Shown: one piece after another, positions 1,983-11,001 of the stretch
How positions within the stretch are numbered: the stretch's first letter is position 1
Layout of the letters: each line of letters starts with the position of its first letter
DNA from: a virus
Strand: one strand, 5' to 3'
Virus record (IMG/VR): IMGVR_UViG_3300045988_029143
Location: 1-11,001 of that record
DNA length: 11,001 bases
Notes under the pieces: generated by a model
The model's database searches: none
Told to the model about the DNA's origin: nothing
What the model saw: the letters and a program-made list of their open reading frames with translations, nothing else
Position numbers and translations under genes: made by a program

Positions 1983-2423
1983 CTATTTATTACCTTTAAG
2001 TGTTACCATTATTATACTACCCTCTTTGTCAAATAGTTGTGAATTGGGAAAGTGCAAAATATCAGTTTTAGGGAAAACATTAAACACGTTACTATTTACT
2101 GACAAATTGCGGTTAGGGTTGTCGCTCTCCACTATTAACGCGGTGCTTTGCAAAATAACATCTTTGTAAGTCTGTAGTACATCAAGCGACAAAGTAAGTA
2201 AATACGTATTACCACCTATGTACCTAACGTTGTCAACAAAGTAATATTTTTGGAAATCCTCAATGTACACGTAATTAAACCCGTACATATTAGGTGGCAT
2301 TTGTATTTTTAGCGTTGGATTATGTACATTAAGTTCGGGGCGCAAAGCAACGTTAAGCGTGCCTAACGGGGTAAGTGCTTTGTTTATCGTGTTAGGTTGC
2401 CCCTTATAGTTATATATTATCAT
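1983..2423 (-). CDS. Tail knob N-terminal domain homolog (phi29 gp9 N-terminal-like), encoded as a separate 146-aa ORF
   Basis: FNYVYIEDFQKYYFVDNVRYIGGNTYLLTLSLDVLQTYKDVILQSTALIVES aligns with phi29 gp9 [57 protein letters not shown] (from memory). The TAG stop is followed one nucleotide later by the ATG of the next ORF. Confidence 0.7.
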   Translation of the reverse strand: MIIYNYKGQPNTINKALTPLGTLNVALRPELNVHNPTLKIQMPPNMYGFNYVYIEDFQKYYFVDNVRYIGGNTYLLTLSLDVLQTYKDVILQSTALIVESDNPNRNLSVNSNVFNVFPKTDILHFPNSQLFDKEGSIIMVTLKGNK

Positions 2424-2482: not shown

Positions 2483-3655
2483 TTAAGCAACAAAGAAAAC
2501 TACAAAATTTTCGTTAGTATCGTTGAAGTAGCCAGCGTCAAACTTATAGTAGTTATTAAAGAACTCGGCCTTTGCGTTATAGTTAGTAGTTACGCGGCGG
2601 TTGAGGTTGCACACACCCAACGCATCGCGGTCAAACATAACACCTAAAACACCGCTAATGTCAACGGTTTTGCCGCCCGTCTCCTTAATGGTAATGTGTG
2701 CCGTACTTGCAAAATCGTACTTTGCACCGCTACCCTGCCAAAATGGTACACTTTCGGCATTCGGCAAAAGCACCTGTTCTTTGTTGTATGTATCGCTGTA
2801 CAAGTAAGCACGGGCCGCCTTTTCGAAGTCAGAGAGTAACACAACGTGTAAGTTTTCGCGAGGTGTAAAGCGTGGCTTACCTCCAATGTTAAATACACTT
2901 GAAATGCTCGCGAGTCTATCCGTGTACAAACCAATTGTGTAACTTGCAAACTTGATGAAATCGGGGTCTGTAAGTGCCTTTTCAGCGGTCAAAGTAGTGC
3001 TTTTGTTATCGTTGTACAACTTAAGCAAGTTAACGCAACGGGCGGTGCTACCTGTTTTGTAGTCTGTGCTACCATCACCACCAAAGGCCGCTCTGTCAGC
3101 TATCAAAGTTTGCGCTATCATGTTATTGATAGTACGCATAATTAACGCGTCCGTCTTAATGGTAATAGACTTTTCCACCGCGTTGTAAATCATAGACAAA
3201 AACGCGTTAAGTTGCTCAGCGTTAGAAAAACTATCTTTTACTTGACGCTCAGTGATAGACACGGGGACTTCGAAAGTTACGCGAGAATTGAAGAACTTTG
3301 CCGTAACTGTTGGCTTGTGAAATACATCTTGTGAGTATACCTCGCCGTCCGTTAGCTCCCAACTCTTATTCTCTTCGGCTTCGGGTAGGTCTGCGCTAAT
3401 CTTTTCGAGTACAGAGCCAAACTCCCAAGCGTCCATAAGTACAGAGGGAATTTTGCCTGCGTACGGGCGATTTACAAAAACCACCTTACCAATATGGTTA
3501 ACAAGTGATTTTACGTAATTGTCGACCGCGTTTTGGTTAAAGACCTCATTACCGAGGTCTACCAACCCCGTTAAATCATCGCTAACAAGTTCGGAGTTAC
3601 CTAAAACCTCTTTTGACACTGAATTTATCAGCGTGTAAATTTGTTTTACTTCCAT
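2483..3655 (-). CDS. Major capsid protein, phi29 gp8-like (HK97 fold expected)
   Basis: 390 aa. YVKSLVNHIGKVVF matches phi29 FITSLVDRIGLVVI, AFLSMIYNAVEKS matches SFVSSIINAIYNS, and the C-terminal NNYYKF...VVFFVA matches WNYYYHV...AVAFV (phi29 sequence from memory). It has its own upstream promoter-like motif and a downstream terminator. Confidence 0.88.
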   Translation of the reverse strand: MEVKQIYTLINSVSKEVLGNSELVSDDLTGLVDLGNEVFNQNAVDNYVKSLVNHIGKVVFVNRPYAGKIPSVLMDAWEFGSVLEKISADLPEAEENKSWELTDGEVYSQDVFHKPTVTAKFFNSRVTFEVPVSITERQVKDSFSNAEQLNAFLSMIYNAVEKSITIKTDALIMRTINNMIAQTLIADRAAFGGDGSTDYKTGSTARCVNLLKLYNDNKSTTLTAEKALTDPDFIKFASYTIGLYTDRLASISSVFNIGGKPRFTPRENLHVVLLSDFEKAARAYLYSDTYNKEQVLLPNAESVPFWQGSGAKYDFASTAHITIKETGGKTVDISGVLGVMFDRDALGVCNLNRRVTTNYNAKAEFFNNYYKFDAGYFNDTNENFVVFFVA

Positions 3656-3656
3656 T

Positions 3657-4226
3657 TTAATATATTAATTTGGTTATGTCATTTATAATTGCAAAAATAA
3701 TGCTTTTGCGCCAATTTTGCAAACTAAATTCAATTTCTTTTGTTAGTTCGTCCGTTGGTGACTTCGAGCCAAGACCTACAACCTTTTGTGTACTCGTGAC
3801 ATTGTTAGTACGTGTATTGTCGTACGTTGTACTATCTTTGTCATACTCCACAAAATCCGTTGCGTTGTATGGCTTGTTAGACGCTACATTTGTATTGTTA
3901 TTGTTGGCGTTTTCGGTGGTCTTATCCTCCCTCGTGGTTTGCTGCTGTACAGGGTTAAGTACATCATATTGGGCATTGTAGGCACTCGCCACGCGTACCC
4001 AATTACTAACACTCAACGCAATTATATTTTTAATGTATTCGTTTGCGTTGGTTTGTGTTATGGTGTTAATACACTCGCGCTCGCTGTAGTTGAGTAGTAC
4101 AAGCGTATCAAGTCCCACACTATCCATGTCACCAAATATTGCAGCGTATTCTGTGGGATAGTTAGGCTTAAATACCGCTGTAAATAGGCCGTGTTTAGGG
4201 TCGGGGTAAAGGTCAATTATCTTCAT
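3657..4226 (-). CDS. Hypothetical virion morphogenesis protein (scaffold or head-tail adaptor, by position only)
   Basis: 189-aa ORF between portal and capsid genes. It is the only gene with a strong SD (AAAGGAGGAAGAAA before the ATG). The centre is N/T/Q-rich and low complexity. I recognise no motif. Confidence 0.8.
   Translation of the reverse strand: MKIIDLYPDPKHGLFTAVFKPNYPTEYAAIFGDMDSVGLDTLVLLNYSERECINTITQTNANEYIKNIIALSVSNWVRVASAYNAQYDVLNPVQQQTTREDKTTENANNNNTNVASNKPYNATDFVEYDKDSTTYDNTRTNNVTSTQKVVGLGSKSPTDELTKEIEFSLQNWRKSIIFAIINDITKLIY
3692..3723 (-). promoter_or_regulatory. Bacteroides-type promoter (-33 TTTG, -7 TAnnTTTG) upstream of the capsid gene
   Basis: The minus strand reads TTTG(3723-3720)-20 nt-TATTTTTG(3699-3692). 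The -7 box ends 36 nt upstream of the MCP ATG at 3655. The motif lies inside the 3' end of the preceding gene. Confidence 0.5.
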
Positions 4227-4242
4227 TTTCTTCCTCCTTTTC

Positions 4243-5235
4243 TTAGTCCGTTTCGTTTTCCGTTTCGGTCTCCGTTTCGGTCTCTGTTTCGGTTTCCGTT
4301 ACTTCCTTTTCTTCCTGTTCAGCAACGCTTTCGCCAATAGTAGAAGTATTATCTTTATTATCTTCATTTTCTGTTTCTGTTTTGGTTTCGTCCTTGCGTA
4401 TCGCCCAACTACTTGCAAGTTCCACACTAATTCCAGTGCCAAACATAGCGTTTATTTTTTCCACCGCCTTTTTGCGCTCTTGTAGCATATTGTCTACATA
4501 CGGGTTGAGGGCATCTACATTCATTTGCACCTCACTTGTATTCAGTCGCTCGCGCTTTAGGTTGTAGTTGGCGTTTAGGCCAATTTCGTTAAACGCAGAC
4601 GCTTTGAAATATTGAAGTAATTCAATGAGTTGCGTTATTTGGTTCGCGCTCTGCGTGGAAATGCTTTGCAAGTTCACGCCCTTAAAAAATGCGTTTTCGC
4701 CTATTACGGAAAAATCTCCTTGCAAAATCTTTGTTATAAAATCGTCCGCGCTTTGTTTGGTCTTGTCATCGCTCGCACTTATTAACATGGTGATACGAGA
4801 GAGTACAGAGCAAGTATTGAGCGACAAAAGCGTATCACTACACAAAACGCCATATTTGCCGAAAATCGGCAAAAGGCTATTTGCGCCACTATCATTTTTA
4901 ATCAATACCCCCTCCACGTCTATTTTGTACGACTTGTTTAGGTTTAGGTATGGGTTACTTACAATGTATTCGGTCGCTTCGTTGTACGCGTTGGGGACAC
5001 CTCCAAGGCCGCCAGTAAAAGCATATATTTTGCCGTCTACCTCAGTTACAAAAACATTGCCGTTGGTCTGTAGTAGGTTTTCCAAATTGTTTTGGGGTAA
5101 CGTTTCGGGCAGACCTTTGTACTCAAACATTGCTTGTGTTATGGCTAACATTTTGCGTATGTAACCTTTTACACTTTTGTCTTTATTTTTTATTTCCTCT
5201 TGATACTTCAAGTACAAGTTATCTTTCTTTGCCAT
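4243..5235 (-). CDS. Portal / upper collar connector protein, phi29 gp10-like
   Basis: 330 aa. [25 protein letters not shown] matches phi29 [48 protein letters not shown] matches [21 protein letters not shown], and [10 protein letters not shown] matches ACEKINELYG (from memory). The C-terminal tail is acidic. Confidence 0.88.
   Translation of the reverse strand: [330 protein letters not shown]
4247..4306 (-). repeat. 12-nt tandem repeat (about 5 units) encoding the (Thr-Glu)n tail of the portal
   Basis: Plus-strand units are tccgtttcgttt, tccgtttcggtc, tccgtttcggtc, tctgtttcggtt and tccgttacttcc. They translate on the minus strand to [20 protein letters not shown]. Confidence 0.9.
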
Positions 5236-5425
5236 TTGTCAATGTTTTTATAAGTGTGCTTAACTCGCTCAAAACTCGGGTGTTATCCTCCAAAGTAGTG
5301 CGTAAATTGTCGGTTTCTTCCTTGTGCTGCTCATCGTGTTTTGTCATGTAGTAAAATACAATTAAGCACATCGCAATCGGAAAGCCTACGTTTGAAATCA
5401 TTTGTGTAACTTGTGTAATATCCAT
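5219..5425 (-). CDS. Small single-pass membrane protein (YvrJ-like; holin candidate)
   Basis: 68 aa. The N-terminal hydrophobic segment SNVGFPIAMCLIVFYY is followed by a charged helical tail. The NVGFPI motif recalls the YvrJ small-protein family (from memory). It overlaps the portal gene by 17 nt. Confidence 0.65.
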   Translation of the reverse strand: MDITQVTQMISNVGFPIAMCLIVFYYMTKHDEQHKEETDNLRTTLEDNTRVLSELSTLIKTLTNGKER

Positions 5426-5449
5426 TTTGTAAGGTGTTATTAATTACTG

Positions 5450-5481
5450 CAAATATACGAAAGTTATTTTATACTTACAAT
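5450..5481 (-). promoter_or_regulatory. Possible Bacteroides-type promoter for the structural gene block (good -7 box, imperfect -33)
   Basis: The minus strand reads ATTG(5481-5478)-20 nt-TATATTTG(5457-5450). The -7 box ends 24 nt upstream of the ATG at 5425, in the only intergenic gap between the ATPase and the late genes. Confidence 0.3.
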
Positions 5482-6594
5482 GTTGGTCTTTGCCGAAGTC
5501 ATTAAATAATTTCGCACAATTTCGCCAACCTCATTATTTTGGTAAAATACTTTGTCCGTGGCAAAATACCGCGCTACTTGACTCTCTAAATACGTCGCAC
5601 TACTTATTAATTTGCGCTTGTAGTTTGGTTTCCCGTTCATCGTTAGGCTGTATATTAGTGAGTTTTCGGGGTCTTTTATTGGGGTAGTCTTCATGTGAAT
5701 GTATGTAAAATTTTCGCCCCCGTGCTGTATTATGTTGCCTTGCAAAATATATTCGTTGAATACAATGTAATACACAAAAAGCACGTCATTTGGTTTGTAC
5801 TTCGTTGGCAAATGTGGATAGGCGGCCATTTCCCATTTGCCGCCCGTTATCATTTCCAAATTTTGATTATCAAAACAAAAGTACTTATTACTTGCTTTTT
5901 GTTTAACAATGGTACTGCAATACTCCACCGCTACCACCGCGCCATGTTGCCCAAACTTGTATATGTCAATAGTGCCTTGCTCCATGTTAGTTACTTGCTT
6001 TAGGCCCATTTCCGTGAAGTAAGGGCAAAACTTATTTATTGTGTTGCCCAACATAAATACTTTTACGTTGTCGCGCTGTCGTATTATGGTACTTAAAAGG
6101 TTCATATACAACATGAACTCATCGGGTAGGTAGTACCTACGAGTTAAAAACTCATCAAAAACGATTGTTGTAACGTTGGGGTAACTGCTACTTTTTTCAT
6201 GCTCTTGTTCTGACAGACAAAAGCCATAGCAAAAGGGTGTAGTTTGCGGTACGTACTTCTTTTTTTCGGGGTCATATTTTGCAAGATACCATTTGCCACC
6301 GATATAAAATACCGCGTTAAACTCCCCCTTTGTTATTTCTTCTATGTACCCGTTGGCCACGTGGTTAGTAAATAGATTTTCTGCACGTTTGCCGCGTAAA
6401 TCCTCGCGCCACCTACGTATATAGGCCATTTGTTCGCCCGTCTGTAAATAGCGTTTAATTCCATACGCTAAAGTAGCGTATGTTTTGCCATTCGAACGCT
6501 CGCCAAATATTATGTTATAATCAGCCTTTTTGTTTAGGATATTGGCGAGGGAGTAAAATTTTATCGTTTCTTTCTTATTTGTTTCTTTCTTCAT
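5464..6594 (-). CDS. DNA packaging (encapsidation) ATPase, phi29 gp16-like
   Basis: 376 aa. Walker A is GERSNGKT (nt 6481-6504) and Walker B-like is TTIVFDEF. Size and single-subunit organisation are typical of protein-primed podophage packaging ATPases. Confidence 0.8.
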   Translation of the reverse strand: MKKETNKKETIKFYSLANILNKKADYNIIFGERSNGKTYATLAYGIKRYLQTGEQMAYIRRWREDLRGKRAENLFTNHVANGYIEEITKGEFNAVFYIGGKWYLAKYDPEKKKYVPQTTPFCYGFCLSEQEHEKSSSYPNVTTIVFDEFLTRRYYLPDEFMLYMNLLSTIIRQRDNVKVFMLGNTINKFCPYFTEMGLKQVTNMEQGTIDIYKFGQHGAVVAVEYCSTIVKQKASNKYFCFDNQNLEMITGGKWEMAAYPHLPTKYKPNDVLFVYYIVFNEYILQGNIIQHGGENFTYIHMKTTPIKDPENSLIYSLTMNGKPNYKRKLISSATYLESQVARYFATDKVFYQNNEVGEIVRNYLMTSAKTNIVSIK

Positions 6595-6597
6595 TGT

Positions 6598-8784
6598 TCA
6601 ATCTTTTAGTTTTATGCCTTTTAGATAATTTAGATACATCACACTTAAAGATAAATTATAACTTGTTGGCTCTAAGTGTACACCCGTATTCTCTGCAAAT
6701 GTACACTTTTTACCCGTGTAGTCGGTTACTTCACCCGTTATTTTGTAGTCTATGTATGTATGTATGTTTTTGCCCGTGGCTTCACACGGAAATTCGAGAT
6801 AATTGGTAAAGGCGTTAAATATGTTATCACCATACTTTTTAACAAGGTAGGGTATTGCAGCCTTTTTGTTTACACCGCTTATTGTTAGGCTGTACTCATA
6901 ACTTTTGCCGCCTACGTTTAGGGCGTTTTCTTCCTGCACAATGTACCTCTTTGCGCCCAACGTCTTAAAACGTTTGTACGTCCCTTCATAGTCCCAAACG
7001 CCTAAAGTTTTAGTAACTCCCTTAATGGTTTCGGGTTCGCATTTGGCAAAGTCTATGTTATGATGTTTACACGCGGCCTTTAGTTTGTTATATACTACAT
7101 TGTTGTACATATCAAAATACCGCTTGTGCGCTGCTGCGTTTCTTAGTTTAATGCTGTCAGTATCGCTGTATATGTAATCTTGCTTTGCTTCGTAGATTGC
7201 GGTAAATAAATTGCGCCTTGCATACGCGGTAACAAAAACACCCCACGGATAAAACAAAAAGCGGTTTTTACTTTCGTTGTACTTCTGTAACATCTCGGCC
7301 TTTTCGCTGTCTGTCAATGTATTCTCGTCCCATTTGCCATTATATACAAATTCATCACGCAAAGGGTTAGTAACACACATACCATAGCACGAGTTTAGCA
7401 TTTCCTTGCTATTTAGGTACTCCACTTCCTTTCCTTGCACGCCTTTTAATTTGGTTTTGTTTTCGTACAAATCTAAGATTGTACGTACAAAATCAGTTGG
7501 CAAATAGTCGGCCTTATAGCAATACATTGCACCGATACGGACACCGCCCCACGTGTAAAATTTGCGTATTATGTTGTAGTCTATGTTTGTTATTGTCGTG
7601 GCTACTTTTGCAGCACAAACAAGCCGGCCGTTATTCTCCACGTGGTCTATCTTGACATAGCATTTGCTTACACTTATAGGGTTATCCTGCAACTCTTTAG
7701 CAAAGATGTTGGCAAATTCAATGTCAAATATGCAAAGGTACTTACTTATGTAGTATTCAAATTCTTGCATATTTCGGGGGTGCACTCGTACCCCCTTAGA
7801 CATAGGGAATTTTTCAGACACCATAACATACGGGTAACTGCTCGTAAAATCGTAACTTGCAACGTCTTCACAAATTTCGTCTATGTGGTTTGCGTTGCCG
7901 TGAGTAAATCCACCGCTAAAAGCCCTTTGCAGCATATTAAATTCATGCAACCCCGAAATAGTTAGCGAGTGGATTAAATTAATACACTCCCAATTACGAG
8001 CGGTTTTGCCGTTTACCTTTTTACTTAACATTGCTTTGCGGCAATGTTTACGCACGTACCCCGTTTTGGTTAGAGGCAAACGCGTTATTAACTTGTTTTG
8101 CTCTAATTGCTCTTGTATGTAGTTCATAACCACTTTTATATCATTCGCGCAGTAAAGCAACTCTTTCGGGGTTAGTTCGGTCTGCACGTGTCGTATTAGG
8201 GTATAGTCTAAATCTCCAACCATTTTTGCACACTTGTATGTTTGTAGTTGCTCGCCTAACTTTGCAAGGTTGTAGCCGCTTAACAAGTAGCTGCATCTAA
8301 ATTCTATGCCTAACGTTGTGGTTGCATATAGGGGCTTGCGCAAATCAATGCTAAAAACTTTCTCCCATTCAAACAGAGTACGCAAAAACTGAAATTCGTA
8401 GGATAAATTGTGTATATATACGATTAGTTTTTTGTTATTGGATAACTCCAATGTTTGTGCTATCGTGTTACACATTGTTACAAACTCGTCCCATGTACGG
8501 CCTACTATTACGTACCCATTTATACCAAATTGCCACACGTACATAATAGCACATTTTTCCATTTTTACACCTATCTTGTTGTATTGTTCGTAAGTGTATG
8601 TGTTGCCGTCTTCGTCTCGGTAAAAACTACTTACCTCAATGTCAAAGGCGCAAGGGACGTTGTAAAATTTACACCCCTTATTGTTGCCTATTACGTTTTT
8701 GTCATTTACGGCCAACTCCAAAATTTTTTGTATGTCGGTGGTCTTATATATACCGCTGTGCTGTTCATATTGCACCTTTTTCAT
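6598..8784 (-). CDS. Family B DNA polymerase, protein-primed type
   Basis: 728 aa. Exo I is FDIEV (D48, E50). Exo II is HNLSYEF. Exo III is YCANDIKV. Motif A is YDFTSSYP. Motif B is KEMLNSCYG. A TPR2-like insert lies before GVFVTAYARR. Motif C is YSDTDS (nt 7153-7170, verified by back-translation). KxY is AKRY. Confidence 0.95.
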   Translation of the reverse strand: MKKVQYEQHSGIYKTTDIQKILELAVNDKNVIGNNKGCKFYNVPCAFDIEVSSFYRDEDGNTYTYEQYNKIGVKMEKCAIMYVWQFGINGYVIVGRTWDEFVTMCNTIAQTLELSNNKKLIVYIHNLSYEFQFLRTLFEWEKVFSIDLRKPLYATTTLGIEFRCSYLLSGYNLAKLGEQLQTYKCAKMVGDLDYTLIRHVQTELTPKELLYCANDIKVVMNYIQEQLEQNKLITRLPLTKTGYVRKHCRKAMLSKKVNGKTARNWECINLIHSLTISGLHEFNMLQRAFSGGFTHGNANHIDEICEDVASYDFTSSYPYVMVSEKFPMSKGVRVHPRNMQEFEYYISKYLCIFDIEFANIFAKELQDNPISVSKCYVKIDHVENNGRLVCAAKVATTITNIDYNIIRKFYTWGGVRIGAMYCYKADYLPTDFVRTILDLYENKTKLKGVQGKEVEYLNSKEMLNSCYGMCVTNPLRDEFVYNGKWDENTLTDSEKAEMLQKYNESKNRFLFYPWGVFVTAYARRNLFTAIYEAKQDYIYSDTDSIKLRNAAAHKRYFDMYNNVVYNKLKAACKHHNIDFAKCEPETIKGVTKTLGVWDYEGTYKRFKTLGAKRYIVQEENALNVGGKSYEYSLTISGVNKKAAIPYLVKKYGDNIFNAFTNYLEFPCEATGKNIHTYIDYKITGEVTDYTGKKCTFAENTGVHLEPTSYNLSLSVMYLNYLKGIKLKD

Positions 8785-9419
8785 AGTCCGAAATTATTAA
8801 ACACGTCTAATATGCTCTGTATCTCGCTTTCTACTTCGTTAGTTAGTTTGTTAGCTTCACTTTCGATATTGCTATCTATCGCGTTTTGTAGGCTTACGGC
8901 TTCACTTTCAATTTGTTCGCTCGCGTCTCGTGCGCTTTGCTCCAAATCGCCCGTGAAGTCTTTATACTTCATGAGGTATTTTTCAACAAAATCGCTATCG
9001 CTTAAACTTGTTAGCTTTTCGTTTAACTTATCGGCCATTAAATTAAATTCTTTGTCAGTAAGGCCGTAGGCGGTTTTTAGGTGTTCGTTGTATGTACGCG
9101 TGCCTTGGGCGGTACTCGTAGGCTGACGCAAAAAAGACACGGCTTTCGCGTACTCTGTTTTAATTTCGTCCCAACTTTGGCCGCTCACAGAAAATTTGCT
9201 ATATCCTTTTATATCTCCTTTGTTTAAGGCTGTTACCGCAGGACTTAATAAACCTTTGTCTTCAATGTTTTGTATGCGTCTATTTGCTTGTTGGAATACG
9301 CGCCTTACTTCCTTTCTTAGTTCGGGACTGCTCTCAACGCTTTGTATAATATCTTGGCGTAATTCGGTGCGCTGCGTTGCTGTAAATACGCTTTGCTTGT
9401 ATCCTATCTTGTTAGGCAT
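8781..9419 (-). CDS. Candidate terminal protein (replication primer)
   Basis: 212-aa ORF immediately upstream of the polymerase gene, overlapping it by ATGA (8781-8784). This TP-then-pol synteny occurs in phi29, PRD1 and Bam35. The N-terminus is basic and the C-terminus is an acidic coiled region. I can verify no sequence motif. Confidence 0.5.
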   Translation of the reverse strand: MPNKIGYKQSVFTATQRTELRQDIIQSVESSPELRKEVRRVFQQANRRIQNIEDKGLLSPAVTALNKGDIKGYSKFSVSGQSWDEIKTEYAKAVSFLRQPTSTAQGTRTYNEHLKTAYGLTDKEFNLMADKLNEKLTSLSDSDFVEKYLMKYKDFTGDLEQSARDASEQIESEAVSLQNAIDSNIESEANKLTNEVESEIQSILDVFNNFGL

Positions 9420-9425
9420 AGCTGT

Positions 9426-9463
9426 AAAATTAAAATAGGTAGGTAGTTATATGCTACCTACCT
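9426..9463 (-). terminator. Intrinsic terminator or attenuator between the early small genes and the TP-polymerase genes
   Basis: A perfect 10-bp stem AGGTAGGTAG(9437-9446)/CTACCTACCT(9454-9463) has a 7-nt loop. On the minus strand it is followed by AUUUUAAUUUU, immediately before the ATG at 9419. Confidence 0.65.
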
Positions 9464-9477
9464 AATTGTGTTACTTG

Positions 9478-10219: not shown

Positions 10220-10234
10220 TTTAATTGTTGGTTA

Positions 10235-10279
10235 ATGTTCCACGTGAAACAATTTTGTTTTGTTCCACGTGAAACAATT
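10235..10279. promoter_or_regulatory. Two copies of an operator-like near-palindrome (TGTTCCACGTGAAACAATT), 25 bp apart
   Basis: A perfect 19-bp direct repeat occurs at 10236-10254 and 10261-10279. Each contains TTGTTC-CACGTG-AAACAA (18-bp palindrome, with one mismatched pair in copy 2 and two in copy 1). It lies in the 63-nt gap between two early genes. Confidence 0.5.
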
Positions 10280-10282
10280 ATT

Positions 10283-10567
10283 TCACTTATTGTTATCTTG
10301 TGTGTATTCTCTAAACTTGTCGAGCAAACCATTTTCAAGGATAAACATATACGCTTCGTTTTTTAGGTTCATTTCAACACGTTTCGAGTTTTCGAGTTCT
10401 TGAATGTCTTTACCTATGTTCTGAGCAAATGCCGCTAAGTTGCTAAGAGTGGCGCAAACGCTTCTGAGTAGTTCAGAGTCGGTGCGCTTTGCTTCAAAAT
10501 GCACGTTTGTGCAAGTAGTTTGCAAGATTGTTGCAAGTTCGGTGTAAAGTTGAGACTTCGTTGCCAT
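10283..10567 (-). CDS. Hypothetical early protein (94 aa, helical)
   Basis: The track ORF 10283..10591 starts at a GTG inside a GC-rich hairpin. The first ATG (10567) gives MATKSQLYTEL... and I prefer it. No recognisable motif. Confidence 0.7.
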   Translation of the reverse strand: MATKSQLYTELATILQTTCTNVHFEAKRTDSELLRSVCATLSNLAAFAQNIGKDIQELENSKRVEMNLKNEAYMFILENGLLDKFREYTQDNNK

Positions 10568-10584
10568 TGTATTTTTGTTTGGTT

Positions 10585-10605
10585 GCCCCACTGGTTAGGT
10601 GGGGC
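10585..10605. other. GC-rich stem-loop GCCCCAC-N7-GTGGGGC just upstream of the first sizeable gene
   Basis: Perfect 7-bp stem with a 7-nt loop. On the minus strand it is followed by an A-rich tract, so it is not a classical terminator. On the plus strand it is followed by GTTACCTTTT. Confidence 0.5.
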
Positions 10606-10613
10606 GTTACCTT

Positions 10614-10721
10614 TTAAAGGTTAGCTAACGTTTTGCCAAGTGTGCGCAAATTGTTTTTAGCTATTCGCTTTGCTGTTTCGCTCTTTGCGTTTTTCAAATC
10701 CTCAAAATTATCATTGAGCAT
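10614..10721 (-). CDS. Possible 35-aa micro-ORF (could instead be part of a non-coding RNA)
   Basis: Hand translation gives MLNDNFEDLKNAKSETAKRIAKNNLRTLGKTLANL. It has an ATG start and TAA stop, lies downstream of the promoter-like motif at 10768-10799, and has no SD. It is too short to judge coding potential. Confidence 0.25.
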   Translation of the reverse strand: MLNDNFEDLKNAKSETAKRIAKNNLRTLGKTLANL

Positions 10722-10767
10722 TTTTAAGCATTTCTAAATCTTTCATTTGTTATTTATTTTGATATTG

Positions 10768-10799
10768 CAAAGGTAGTAACTTTGTGTACTTAATGCAAA
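10768..10799 (-). promoter_or_regulatory. Bacteroides-type promoter (-33 TTTG, -7 TAnnTTTG) at the right end, facing the early genes
   Basis: The minus strand reads TTTG(10799-10796)-20 nt-TACCTTTG(10775-10768). It sits in an AT-rich non-coding region upstream of all genes. Confidence 0.5.
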
Positions 10800-10847
10800 T
10801 TTTTAGTATTAAAATATCTTAAAAGATTATTTTTTGTTTCGTTGCTA

Positions 10848-10863
10848 TGCGAATAGCGTGCCA
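10848..10863 (-). promoter_or_regulatory. sigma-54-like -24/-12 motif copy 3 (subterminal at the right end, pointing inward, same direction as the genes)
   Basis: The minus strand reads TGGCAC GCTAT TCGCA. The GG and GC dinucleotides keep correct spacing, with one mismatch in the -12 box. Its distance from the right end (139 nt) is similar to that of copy 2 from the left end (135 nt). Confidence 0.3.
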
Positions 10864-10900
10864 AAAATCGCTTTTCGTAGGTGCTTTTTTCTTGTGATTT

Positions 10901-11001
10901 TGGAGGTTTGGCACGGCCTATGCAAAAAGCGTGCCAAACTATGTTGGCTACTGTTAAAAATGTGTTGGGAAATGTTAAAAAGGGGGGCGTTGTGCATATT
11001 T
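10901..11001. repeat. Right inverted terminal repeat (101 bp)
   Basis: Reverse complement of 1-101 with 100/101 identity. The single difference lies in a C5A versus C6 run. Confidence 0.95.
10921..10936 (-). promoter_or_regulatory. sigma-54-like -24/-12 motif copy 4, inside the right ITR and pointing inward toward the genes
   Basis: The minus strand reads TGGCACGCTTTTTGCA, the mirror of copy 1. It is oriented with all minus-strand genes. Confidence 0.35.

Follow-up and report, generated by a model that had tools for sequence, protein, structure and literature searches.

Bacteroidota-type promoter motifs and near-absence of Shine-Dalgarno sequences in an 11-kb phi29-like phage with a probable Prevotella host

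The DNA analysed here, called the window throughout, is the whole of IMG/VR virus record IMGVR_UViG_3300045988_029143 (11,001 nucleotides (nt), class ITR). It is a complete linear genome from gut metagenomes, bounded by inverted terminal repeats (ITRs), the genome form that goes with phi29-like membership. PF03175, PF25622, PF05352 and PF05894 all scored above their cut-offs, completing the set of polymerase, capsid, connector and gp16 ATPase, and the window is the genome of a small phi29-like, protein-primed podophage with 13 genes in total, every sizeable one of them on the minus strand (Table 1). Family searches recognised no RNA polymerase or sigma factor among these genes, so transcription must depend on the host enzyme, and our subject is the set of signals by which such an enzyme would read this genome. 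We propose, with a probability of roughly 85%, that the window belongs to a gut Prevotella (Bacteroidota) phage which is read by the host RNA polymerase from Bacteroidota-type promoters and translated without Shine-Dalgarno sequences. Three predicted promoters, P1 before the small early genes, P2 before the late block and P3 before the capsid gene, are central to this proposal, together with the translation starts and the spacers of two Prevotella genomes.

Relatives of the phage are numerous, with 338 contigs in IMG/VR encoding a relative of its capsid protein. Among them we distinguish clade A, which contains the window (capsid at least 83% identical), and its sister clade B, which makes up most of the group (76–79%). 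Among cultured phages, the nearest are Astrithrvirus-like ones of Gammaproteobacteria (~11 kb), with capsids 55–59% and polymerases 41–46% identical and with Salmonella, Shigella, Enterobacter, Pectobacterium, Acinetobacter and Vibrio as hosts; among them are astrithr, Astrid and assan of Salmonella, DU_PP_III of Pectobacterium, Phanie of Acinetobacter and K58 g2 of Vibrio. Phi29-like phages of Gram-negative hosts are established, and the comparison with the Firmicutes phi29 group that had accompanied an original prediction, made by a model from the letters of the window, is outdated in view of these closer cultured relatives.

Promoter motifs and translation starts

The −7 consensus of Bacteroidota has been refined to TAHHTTTG by transcript mapping in Flavobacterium johnsoniae, with a weakly conserved −33 element (PMC6847099). 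In the proposed model, the host RNA polymerase with a Bacteroidota-type primary sigma factor would recognise TTTG at −33 and TAnnTTTG at −7, and transcription would be expected to start about 5 nt past the −7 box. An exact search for TTTG-N19-21-TAnnTTTG on both strands returned three matches in the window, two on the gene strand (P1 and P3) and one on the other. The original prediction had named the first two, had added P2 as a near match, and had expected fewer than one match by chance. All three sites lie where it had placed them, and its estimate agrees with a mean of 0.38 matches in 200 dinucleotide shuffles, none of which reached three, and of 0.48 in 100 further shuffles, of which two did. 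The three −7 boxes (TACCTTTG at 10768, TATATTTG at 5450 and TATTTTTG at 3692) agree with TAHHTTTG, and in P1 and P3 the −33 element is an exact TTTG at a 20-nt spacing; P2 has ATTG there. Sigma-70-type sites are at chance level, with 31 found against 27.6 expected. The third exact match, which runs antisense within the capsid gene, recurs in only 1 of 80 relatives (L005) and so is probably a chance occurrence. It is the position, orientation and conservation of the motifs that carry the weight, and not their count: the predicted promoters are oriented as the genes, lie upstream of them and are conserved in relatives, the conservation of P3 being confounded by coding sequence.

P2, which had entered the analysis as a mere near match, is the best conserved of the three. 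It lies in non-coding DNA past the stop codon of the ATPase gene, and its −7 box is found at 83 of 87 loci, 20–32 nt (mode 25) before the start codon of the holin-like gene. The box is kept even in lineages whose intergenic sequence is otherwise unalignable, while its flanks diverge. At the remaining four loci, which belong to three gammaproteobacterial phages and one other lineage, a Shine-Dalgarno sequence occurs there instead in every case. Transcription of the late block would begin near 5444, a predicted start about 19 nt before the holin-like gene. As a separate observation on this region, most clade-B loci have a conserved TTGGTGCAAATTTCGTGCC just upstream of the P2 box (at about 5270–5300 in L030); its reverse complement, GGCACGAAATTTGCA, is a sigma-54-like −24/−12 motif on the antisense strand.

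P1 also sits in non-coding DNA, and its motif match is exact. Aligned across 15 clade-A genomes, the motif keeps all 10 specified bases without exception, while its two 'n' bases vary and only 5 of the 20 spacer bases stay constant. By a hypergeometric count, the ten motif columns would all belong to the 15 constant columns (of 32) with a probability of about 5e-5. The genes downstream of P1 are non-homologous between clade-A genomes. Early transcription would begin near 10762, as predicted from the position of the box, and would proceed leftward through the small early genes, with the two terminator-like hairpins of Table 1 possibly modulating read-through. The stretch between P1 and the first sizeable gene holds a micro-open reading frame (ORF) of 35 amino acids, MLNDNFEDLKNAKSETAKRIAKNNLRTLGKTLANL, at 10620–10727 on the minus strand, followed by a hairpin at 10584–10606; different, non-homologous ORFs occupy this stretch in other clade-A genomes.

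P3 would provide additional capsid transcripts. Between its box and the capsid ATG (3655) lie 36 nt, and its −7 box is retained in nearly all relatives with a capsid identity of at least 76%, that is, in clades A and B. We nevertheless hold it to be the least certain of the three predicted promoters.

Translation starts in the window bear out a further claim of the original prediction, namely that a single gene among the 13, that starting at 4226, is preceded by a clear Shine-Dalgarno sequence. The mean duplex energy over all genes is −0.45 kcal/mol, and Shine-Dalgarno sequences precede a fraction of 0.08 of the window's genes. Near-absence of these sequences holds across 70 near-complete relatives (mean 0.04, maximum 0.17), and Bacteroides phage B40-8 has a fraction of 0.11. 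The corresponding values are 0.80 for Salmonella phage astrithr, 0.69 for Acinetobacter phage Phanie, 0.62 for Vibrio phage K58 g2 and 0.93 for Amedibacillus phage AD70P2, a Firmicutes phage. The one strong sequence in the window, AAGGAGG, is not conserved, its place being taken in relatives by AAGGAAG, AACGAAG or AAAGAAA, and only 21 of 84 homologues pass even a weak threshold. We rejected it as a regulatory feature because of this lack of conservation; it is a by-product of a purine-rich stretch.

Upstream of the start codons, 77 genes from six representative gut-clade genomes have A at a frequency of 0.61–0.81 from −14 to −11, with almost no G; the genes of the window taken by themselves give 0.60, where the strand as a whole has 0.35 A. 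Over roughly the same stretch, from −14 to −7, the gammaproteobacterial relatives are rich in G. At −3 and −6 the frequency of A is 0.49 and 0.57, against a background of about 0.35–0.40, in genes that are related to one another and therefore form a non-independent sample. An A-rich block at −14 to −11 is a feature reported for Bacteroidetes (PMC6847099). Translation of the phage genes would accordingly be initiated as in the host, without Shine-Dalgarno pairing, and the A-rich positions from −14 to −11 may assist it.

Spacers, host and competing readings

Host evidence was sought by comparing the window with 401 genomes from the GTDB family of a Prevotella metagenome-assembled genome (MAG), with only two candidates scored per genome in this search and in those of the two control groups below. 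One genome, the MAG 'uncultured Prevotella sp. isolate UMGS287' (G300), held eight clustered short matches, and these fall in two arrays of clustered regularly interspaced short palindromic repeats (CRISPR), one of type V-A and one of type I-C, with 17 spacers each. The V-A array has a Cas12a-type repeat (...AATTTCTACTATTGTAGAT) and adjoins cas12a (TIGR04330, 1523 bits), cas4 and cas1. The I-C array adjoins cas1c and cas8c, and its contig bears in addition a Bacteroidota-specific EF-G2 (NF058620, 1316 bits). SusD genes are present in UMGS287, and both of its CRISPR contigs are poor in Shine-Dalgarno sequences. Altogether 15 of the 34 spacers (8 of 17 V-A and 7 of 17 I-C) have matches in clade-A phages at 3 mismatches or fewer; several are perfect against L006, L007 or L010, and nine match the window itself at 1–3 mismatches. 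Once the spacers are oriented by the repeat, the protospacer-adjacent motifs (PAMs) are mostly TTC for type I-C and TTTV for type V-A, with a few variants. The seven I-C matches are contiguous at one end of the array, with intact repeats, and we infer that this is the leader end.

Clade B is tied to the same genus by Prevotella sp. CAG:755. Its closed 2.67-Mb chromosome contains a CRISPR array with a 47-nt repeat and 24 spacers, of which three match clade B at 0–1 mismatch; we take this array to be of type II-C, judging from its repeat. Clustered spacer-type matches were absent from 401 Enterobacteriaceae genomes and from 401 genomes of a Firmicutes order. The original prediction had proposed a Bacteroidota host and had suggested matching CRISPR spacers as a check. 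That check came out positive, with two CRISPR systems of UMGS287 contributing 15 spacers and mostly correct PAMs, and the spacer evidence for Firmicutes that it had listed as contrary did not appear in the Firmicutes order searched. The mere number of genomes with weak BLAST matches proved uninformative (63 of 401 in Bacteroidaceae, 63 of 401 in Enterobacteriaceae and 59 of 401 in the Firmicutes order) and was set aside; only the location and clustering of such matches inform on the host.

By location, weak short matches to the window in the Bacteroidaceae sample concentrate on 3681–3727, 5435–5480 and 10735–10803, which are the three predicted promoters. In clade B, similarly, 11 of the 14 matches outside CRISPR spacers and phage contigs fall on that clade's three predicted promoters. 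The promoter-like host sequences have a −7 box 20–40 nt before an ORF or tRNA gene: near-identical copies of the P1 box plus leader stand 27–41 nt upstream of ORFs in Bacteroidaceae genomes, and a host sequence resembling P2 precedes a tRNA gene. The two control groups, Enterobacteriaceae and the Firmicutes order, do not show this concentration. Since only two candidates were scored per genome, we count the likeness to host promoters as supporting evidence only.

A number of points weigh against the proposed Prevotella host and its promoters. The host link of clade A comes from one MAG rather than an isolate, and the spacers were not found in 147 other genomes of the UMGS287 genus, again with two candidates scored per genome. 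Contigs of the relatives fall in MAGs of several phyla. Taken alone, the count of full motifs is modest evidence, at p of about 0.01, and the −7 box by itself (TAnnTTTG) shows neither excess nor strand bias, with 13 on the gene strand and 14 on the other; finding no signal there, we dropped its genome-wide count and strand bias as evidence. Some 200 nt separate P1 from the first sizeable gene, and no promoter motif lies between the hairpin at 9436–9464 and the replication genes. Finally, the −7 box of P3 coincides with the codons for I-I-F-A at the 3' end of the gene at 3657–4226, which makes promoter constraint inseparable from coding constraint at this site.

This last point leads to the strongest competing reading, in which the host is Prevotella but 3692–3723 is no more than a by-product of coding for ...NWRKxIIFA..., a conserved peptide in the upstream gene, and the capsid gene is served from P2 only. 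In codon terms the −7 box fits AT[T ATn TTT G]CA, yet hardly any variation is seen at the synonymous sites that the motif requires (ATT, TTT), in contrast to the variable free 'n' site, and the spacing to the ATG suits a promoter. The −33 element has been lost in clade B and the sub-lineages L086–L089 have no box before the capsid gene, to which may be opposed the existence of similar sequences in host genomes. P2 does lie upstream on the same strand with no terminator between, so that it could reach the capsid gene; an extra capsid promoter combined with a terminator would nonetheless make a sensible design. On balance we regard the by-product reading as unlikely, though it keeps a substantial minority share of our judgement.

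A host in another phylum with few Shine-Dalgarno sequences, for example Melainabacteria/Gastranaerophilales, is very improbable. It draws on two relatives, L087 and L088 (capsid 75% identical), which sit in two independent Melainabacteria-type MAGs, and on the finding that 236 Bacteroidaceae genomes held no spacer-type match for L087. Both relatives, on the other hand, retain the Bacteroidota −7 box before the holin-like gene, and CRISPR systems of Prevotella target the clade to which the window belongs. The binning of such small contigs is moreover scattered over at least three phyla and hence unreliable. In all, 16 relatives (L084–L099) were binned in GTDB species-representative MAGs labelled Prevotella, Scatosoma, Staphylococcaceae, Gastranaerophilales, Melainabacteria, Tissierella and others, and we dropped MAG membership as host evidence, reading labels so scattered over unrelated taxa as mis-binning or contaminant contigs.

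A gammaproteobacterial host, with the motifs as chance products of AT-rich DNA, would suit the best cultured matches, which are all on such hosts and share the gene order, and the p of about 0.01 for the motif count, but this reading is largely refuted by the 62–80% of Shine-Dalgarno genes and 0–1 motif matches in those relatives against a single non-conserved Shine-Dalgarno sequence in the window, by motifs conserved amid unconserved surrounding DNA, by the lack of spacer-type matches in the 401 Enterobacteriaceae genomes beside 15 Prevotella spacers mostly at correct-PAM sites, and by the separation of Shine-Dalgarno-less genomes from the gammaproteobacterial clade on the capsid tree.

Features of the window and its ends

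Table 1. Features of the 11,001-nt window, with positions counted from its first base and the strand given as + or −.
Feature	Position	Strand	Remarks
Inverted terminal repeat	1–131, partner 10871–11001		131 nt, 90% complementary
Protospacer	2333–2360		at most 3 mismatches
Terminator-like hairpin and T-run	2439–2463	−	after the capsid gene; hairpin at the same place in all lineages including astrithr
Major capsid protein gene	2483–3655	−	Pfam Phi29_MCP, E = 1.9e-54
Protospacer	3176–3209		at most 3 mismatches
Protospacer, I-C spacer of UMGS287	3548–3582	+	2 mismatches; PAM CTC, a variant of the canonical TTC
Third exact motif match	3612–3643	+	antisense within the capsid gene
P3, predicted capsid-gene promoter	3692–3723	−	−33 TTTG 3720–3723; −7 box TATTTTTG 3692–3699; exact match
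Protospacer	4225–4253		at most 3 mismatches
Sole strong Shine-Dalgarno-like sequence, AAGGAGG	4233–4239	−	before the gene starting at 4226; −11.6 kcal/mol
Connector gene	4243–5235	−	family search
Protospacer	4574–4605		at most 3 mismatches
Holin-like small membrane protein gene	5219–5425	−	family search
P2, predicted late-block promoter (holin-like gene, connector onward)	5450–5481	−	−7 box TATATTTG 5450–5457; −33 near match ATTG 5478–5481
gp16-type packaging ATPase gene	5464–6594	−	family search
Protein-primed family-B DNA polymerase gene	6598–8784	−	PF03175, E = 8e-12; phrog_1907, E = 1.8e-72
Protospacer	7019–7046		at most 3 mismatches
Protospacer	7841–7870		at most 3 mismatches
Protospacer, V-A (Cas12a) spacer of UMGS287	8009–8037	+	1 mismatch; PAM TTTG
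Putative terminal-protein gene	8781–9419		expected position; no family match
Protospacer	8783–8812		at most 3 mismatches
Terminator-like hairpin and T-run	9436–9464	−	separates the small early genes from the putative terminal-protein gene
P1, predicted early promoter	10768–10799	−	−33 TTTG 10796–10799; −7 box TACCTTTG 10768–10775

The ends of the genome carry further features. Two IMG/VR contigs, L009 (1–50) and L013 (1–60), start with sequencing-adapter sequence, and in the relative L009 the adapter (...GTGTGCTCTTCCGATCT) directly adjoins AAATATGCAC, which suggests that the linear genome physically ends at base 1 of the window. Four inward-facing repeats of TTGGCACGCTnTTTGCATAGG lie at 64–84 and 134–153 on the plus strand and at 10845–10865 and 10918–10938 on the minus strand; they fit the sigma-54 consensus TGGCACG-N4-TTGCW, and the right-end pair is upstream of P1.

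Two observations concern likenesses to bacterial DNA elsewhere. A paired, CACGTG-centred repeat, GTTCCACGTGAAACAATT, is present in two copies at 10231–10283. It has matches of 23–29 nt at 96–100% identity in about a dozen Bacteroidaceae genomes and of 40–76 nt at 76–86% identity in a Firmicutes order, and it may be a widespread operator-like sequence. In the L087 lineage, stretches of 47–96 nt at 61–172, 4897–4956 and 6094–6191 (L087 coordinates) share 73–84% identity with chromosomal DNA of many Bacteroidaceae genomes.

Evolution and comparison with known systems

On an unrooted capsid tree the Shine-Dalgarno-less genomes, 14 rows in all, come together in a single weakly supported group (84/51). 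The gammaproteobacterial clade (93/97) lies elsewhere on the tree, as do the lineages with Shine-Dalgarno sequences whose contigs are binned with Firmicutes. Unrooted and with a weak node as it is, this tree fits one shift to Bacteroidota. We lean, by a small measure, towards the view that a phi29-like lineage, with other branches in Firmicutes and Gammaproteobacteria, crossed into Bacteroidota once and gave rise to the ~340 gut contigs of this group. All promoters and ribosome-binding sites would then have been remade, with the gene order and the virion proteins still recognisable (capsid identity of 55% or more). If so, the group would serve as a natural experiment in the re-tuning of expression by a minimal phage that has moved to another host phylum. 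Its members would then also be the first protein-primed phages with a tail for which direct host evidence points to Bacteroidota, and Prevotella promoters and a linear replicon might be had from them in compact form.

Bacteria of Prevotella and related groups abound in the gut; they are difficult to manipulate, and only a few of their phages have been characterised. A large family of phages with 11 kb and 13 genes, matched by Prevotella spacers, would rank among the simplest tailed phages for Bacteroidota, and its predicted promoters and leaders are short, conserved and probably strong. Set beside the relatives on Salmonella and Vibrio, the family shows that expression signals alone can expose a change of host phylum which protein similarity masks, and such signals could help in assigning hosts to metagenomic phages. 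No new mechanism is involved, the signals being the ordinary ones of the host. Within the library searched, no paper describes a phi29-like phage of Prevotella, links this phage group to that genus or treats its expression signals; public virus catalogues may well hold spacer-based host predictions.

The closest known systems are the Astrithrvirus-like phages. They share with the window the ~11-kb linear genome with ITRs, the gene order of terminal protein, polymerase, ATPase, small membrane protein, connector, ~185-amino-acid gene, capsid and two-gene tail knob, and a hairpin 3' of the capsid gene. They differ in host phylum, in having Shine-Dalgarno sequences at 62–80% of their genes and in lacking TTTG/TAnnTTTG promoters. 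They also carry a leftward-reading gene block at the far end and an endolysin gene, the latter directly after the tail gene in the gammaproteobacterial relatives; family searches recognised no endolysin gene in the window, and the leftward-reading block is absent from it too. In the practice of the International Committee on Taxonomy of Viruses, genus-level nucleotide similarity is ~70%. The window does not belong to the genus Astrithrvirus, as its similarity to astrithr is at the protein level only, and the identities of 57% (capsid) and 45% (polymerase), from a protein comparison only, exclude genus-level DNA identity.

A phi29-like phage of Bacteroidota had been called unusual in the original prediction. 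It is less unusual than was thought, as a Bacteroidales host had earlier been proposed in silico for a phage of another lineage, 'Bacteriophage sp. isolate 2692_55609' of cluster 30 (Evseev et al. 2024, PMC11476376). That proposal was built on protein homologues, without spacers, promoters or Shine-Dalgarno analysis (PMC11476376). Like the window, 2692_55609 is a small phi29-like genome with a host proposed in silico, here Bacteroidales; it comes from human faeces and falls in another lineage, one closer to Amedibacillus phage AD70P2.

In its expression signals the window has its likeness among Bacteroidota themselves. With their housekeeping promoters it shares consensus, spacing and orientation, and a leader of ~20–30 nt for P2 and P3, and with their translation initiation the A-rich block at −14 to −11 and the near-absence of Shine-Dalgarno sequences (PMC6847099). 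The difference is that these signals here stand in a protein-primed phi29-like phage, where their activity and start points are predicted. The same pattern of expression signals is found in Bacteroides phage B40-8.

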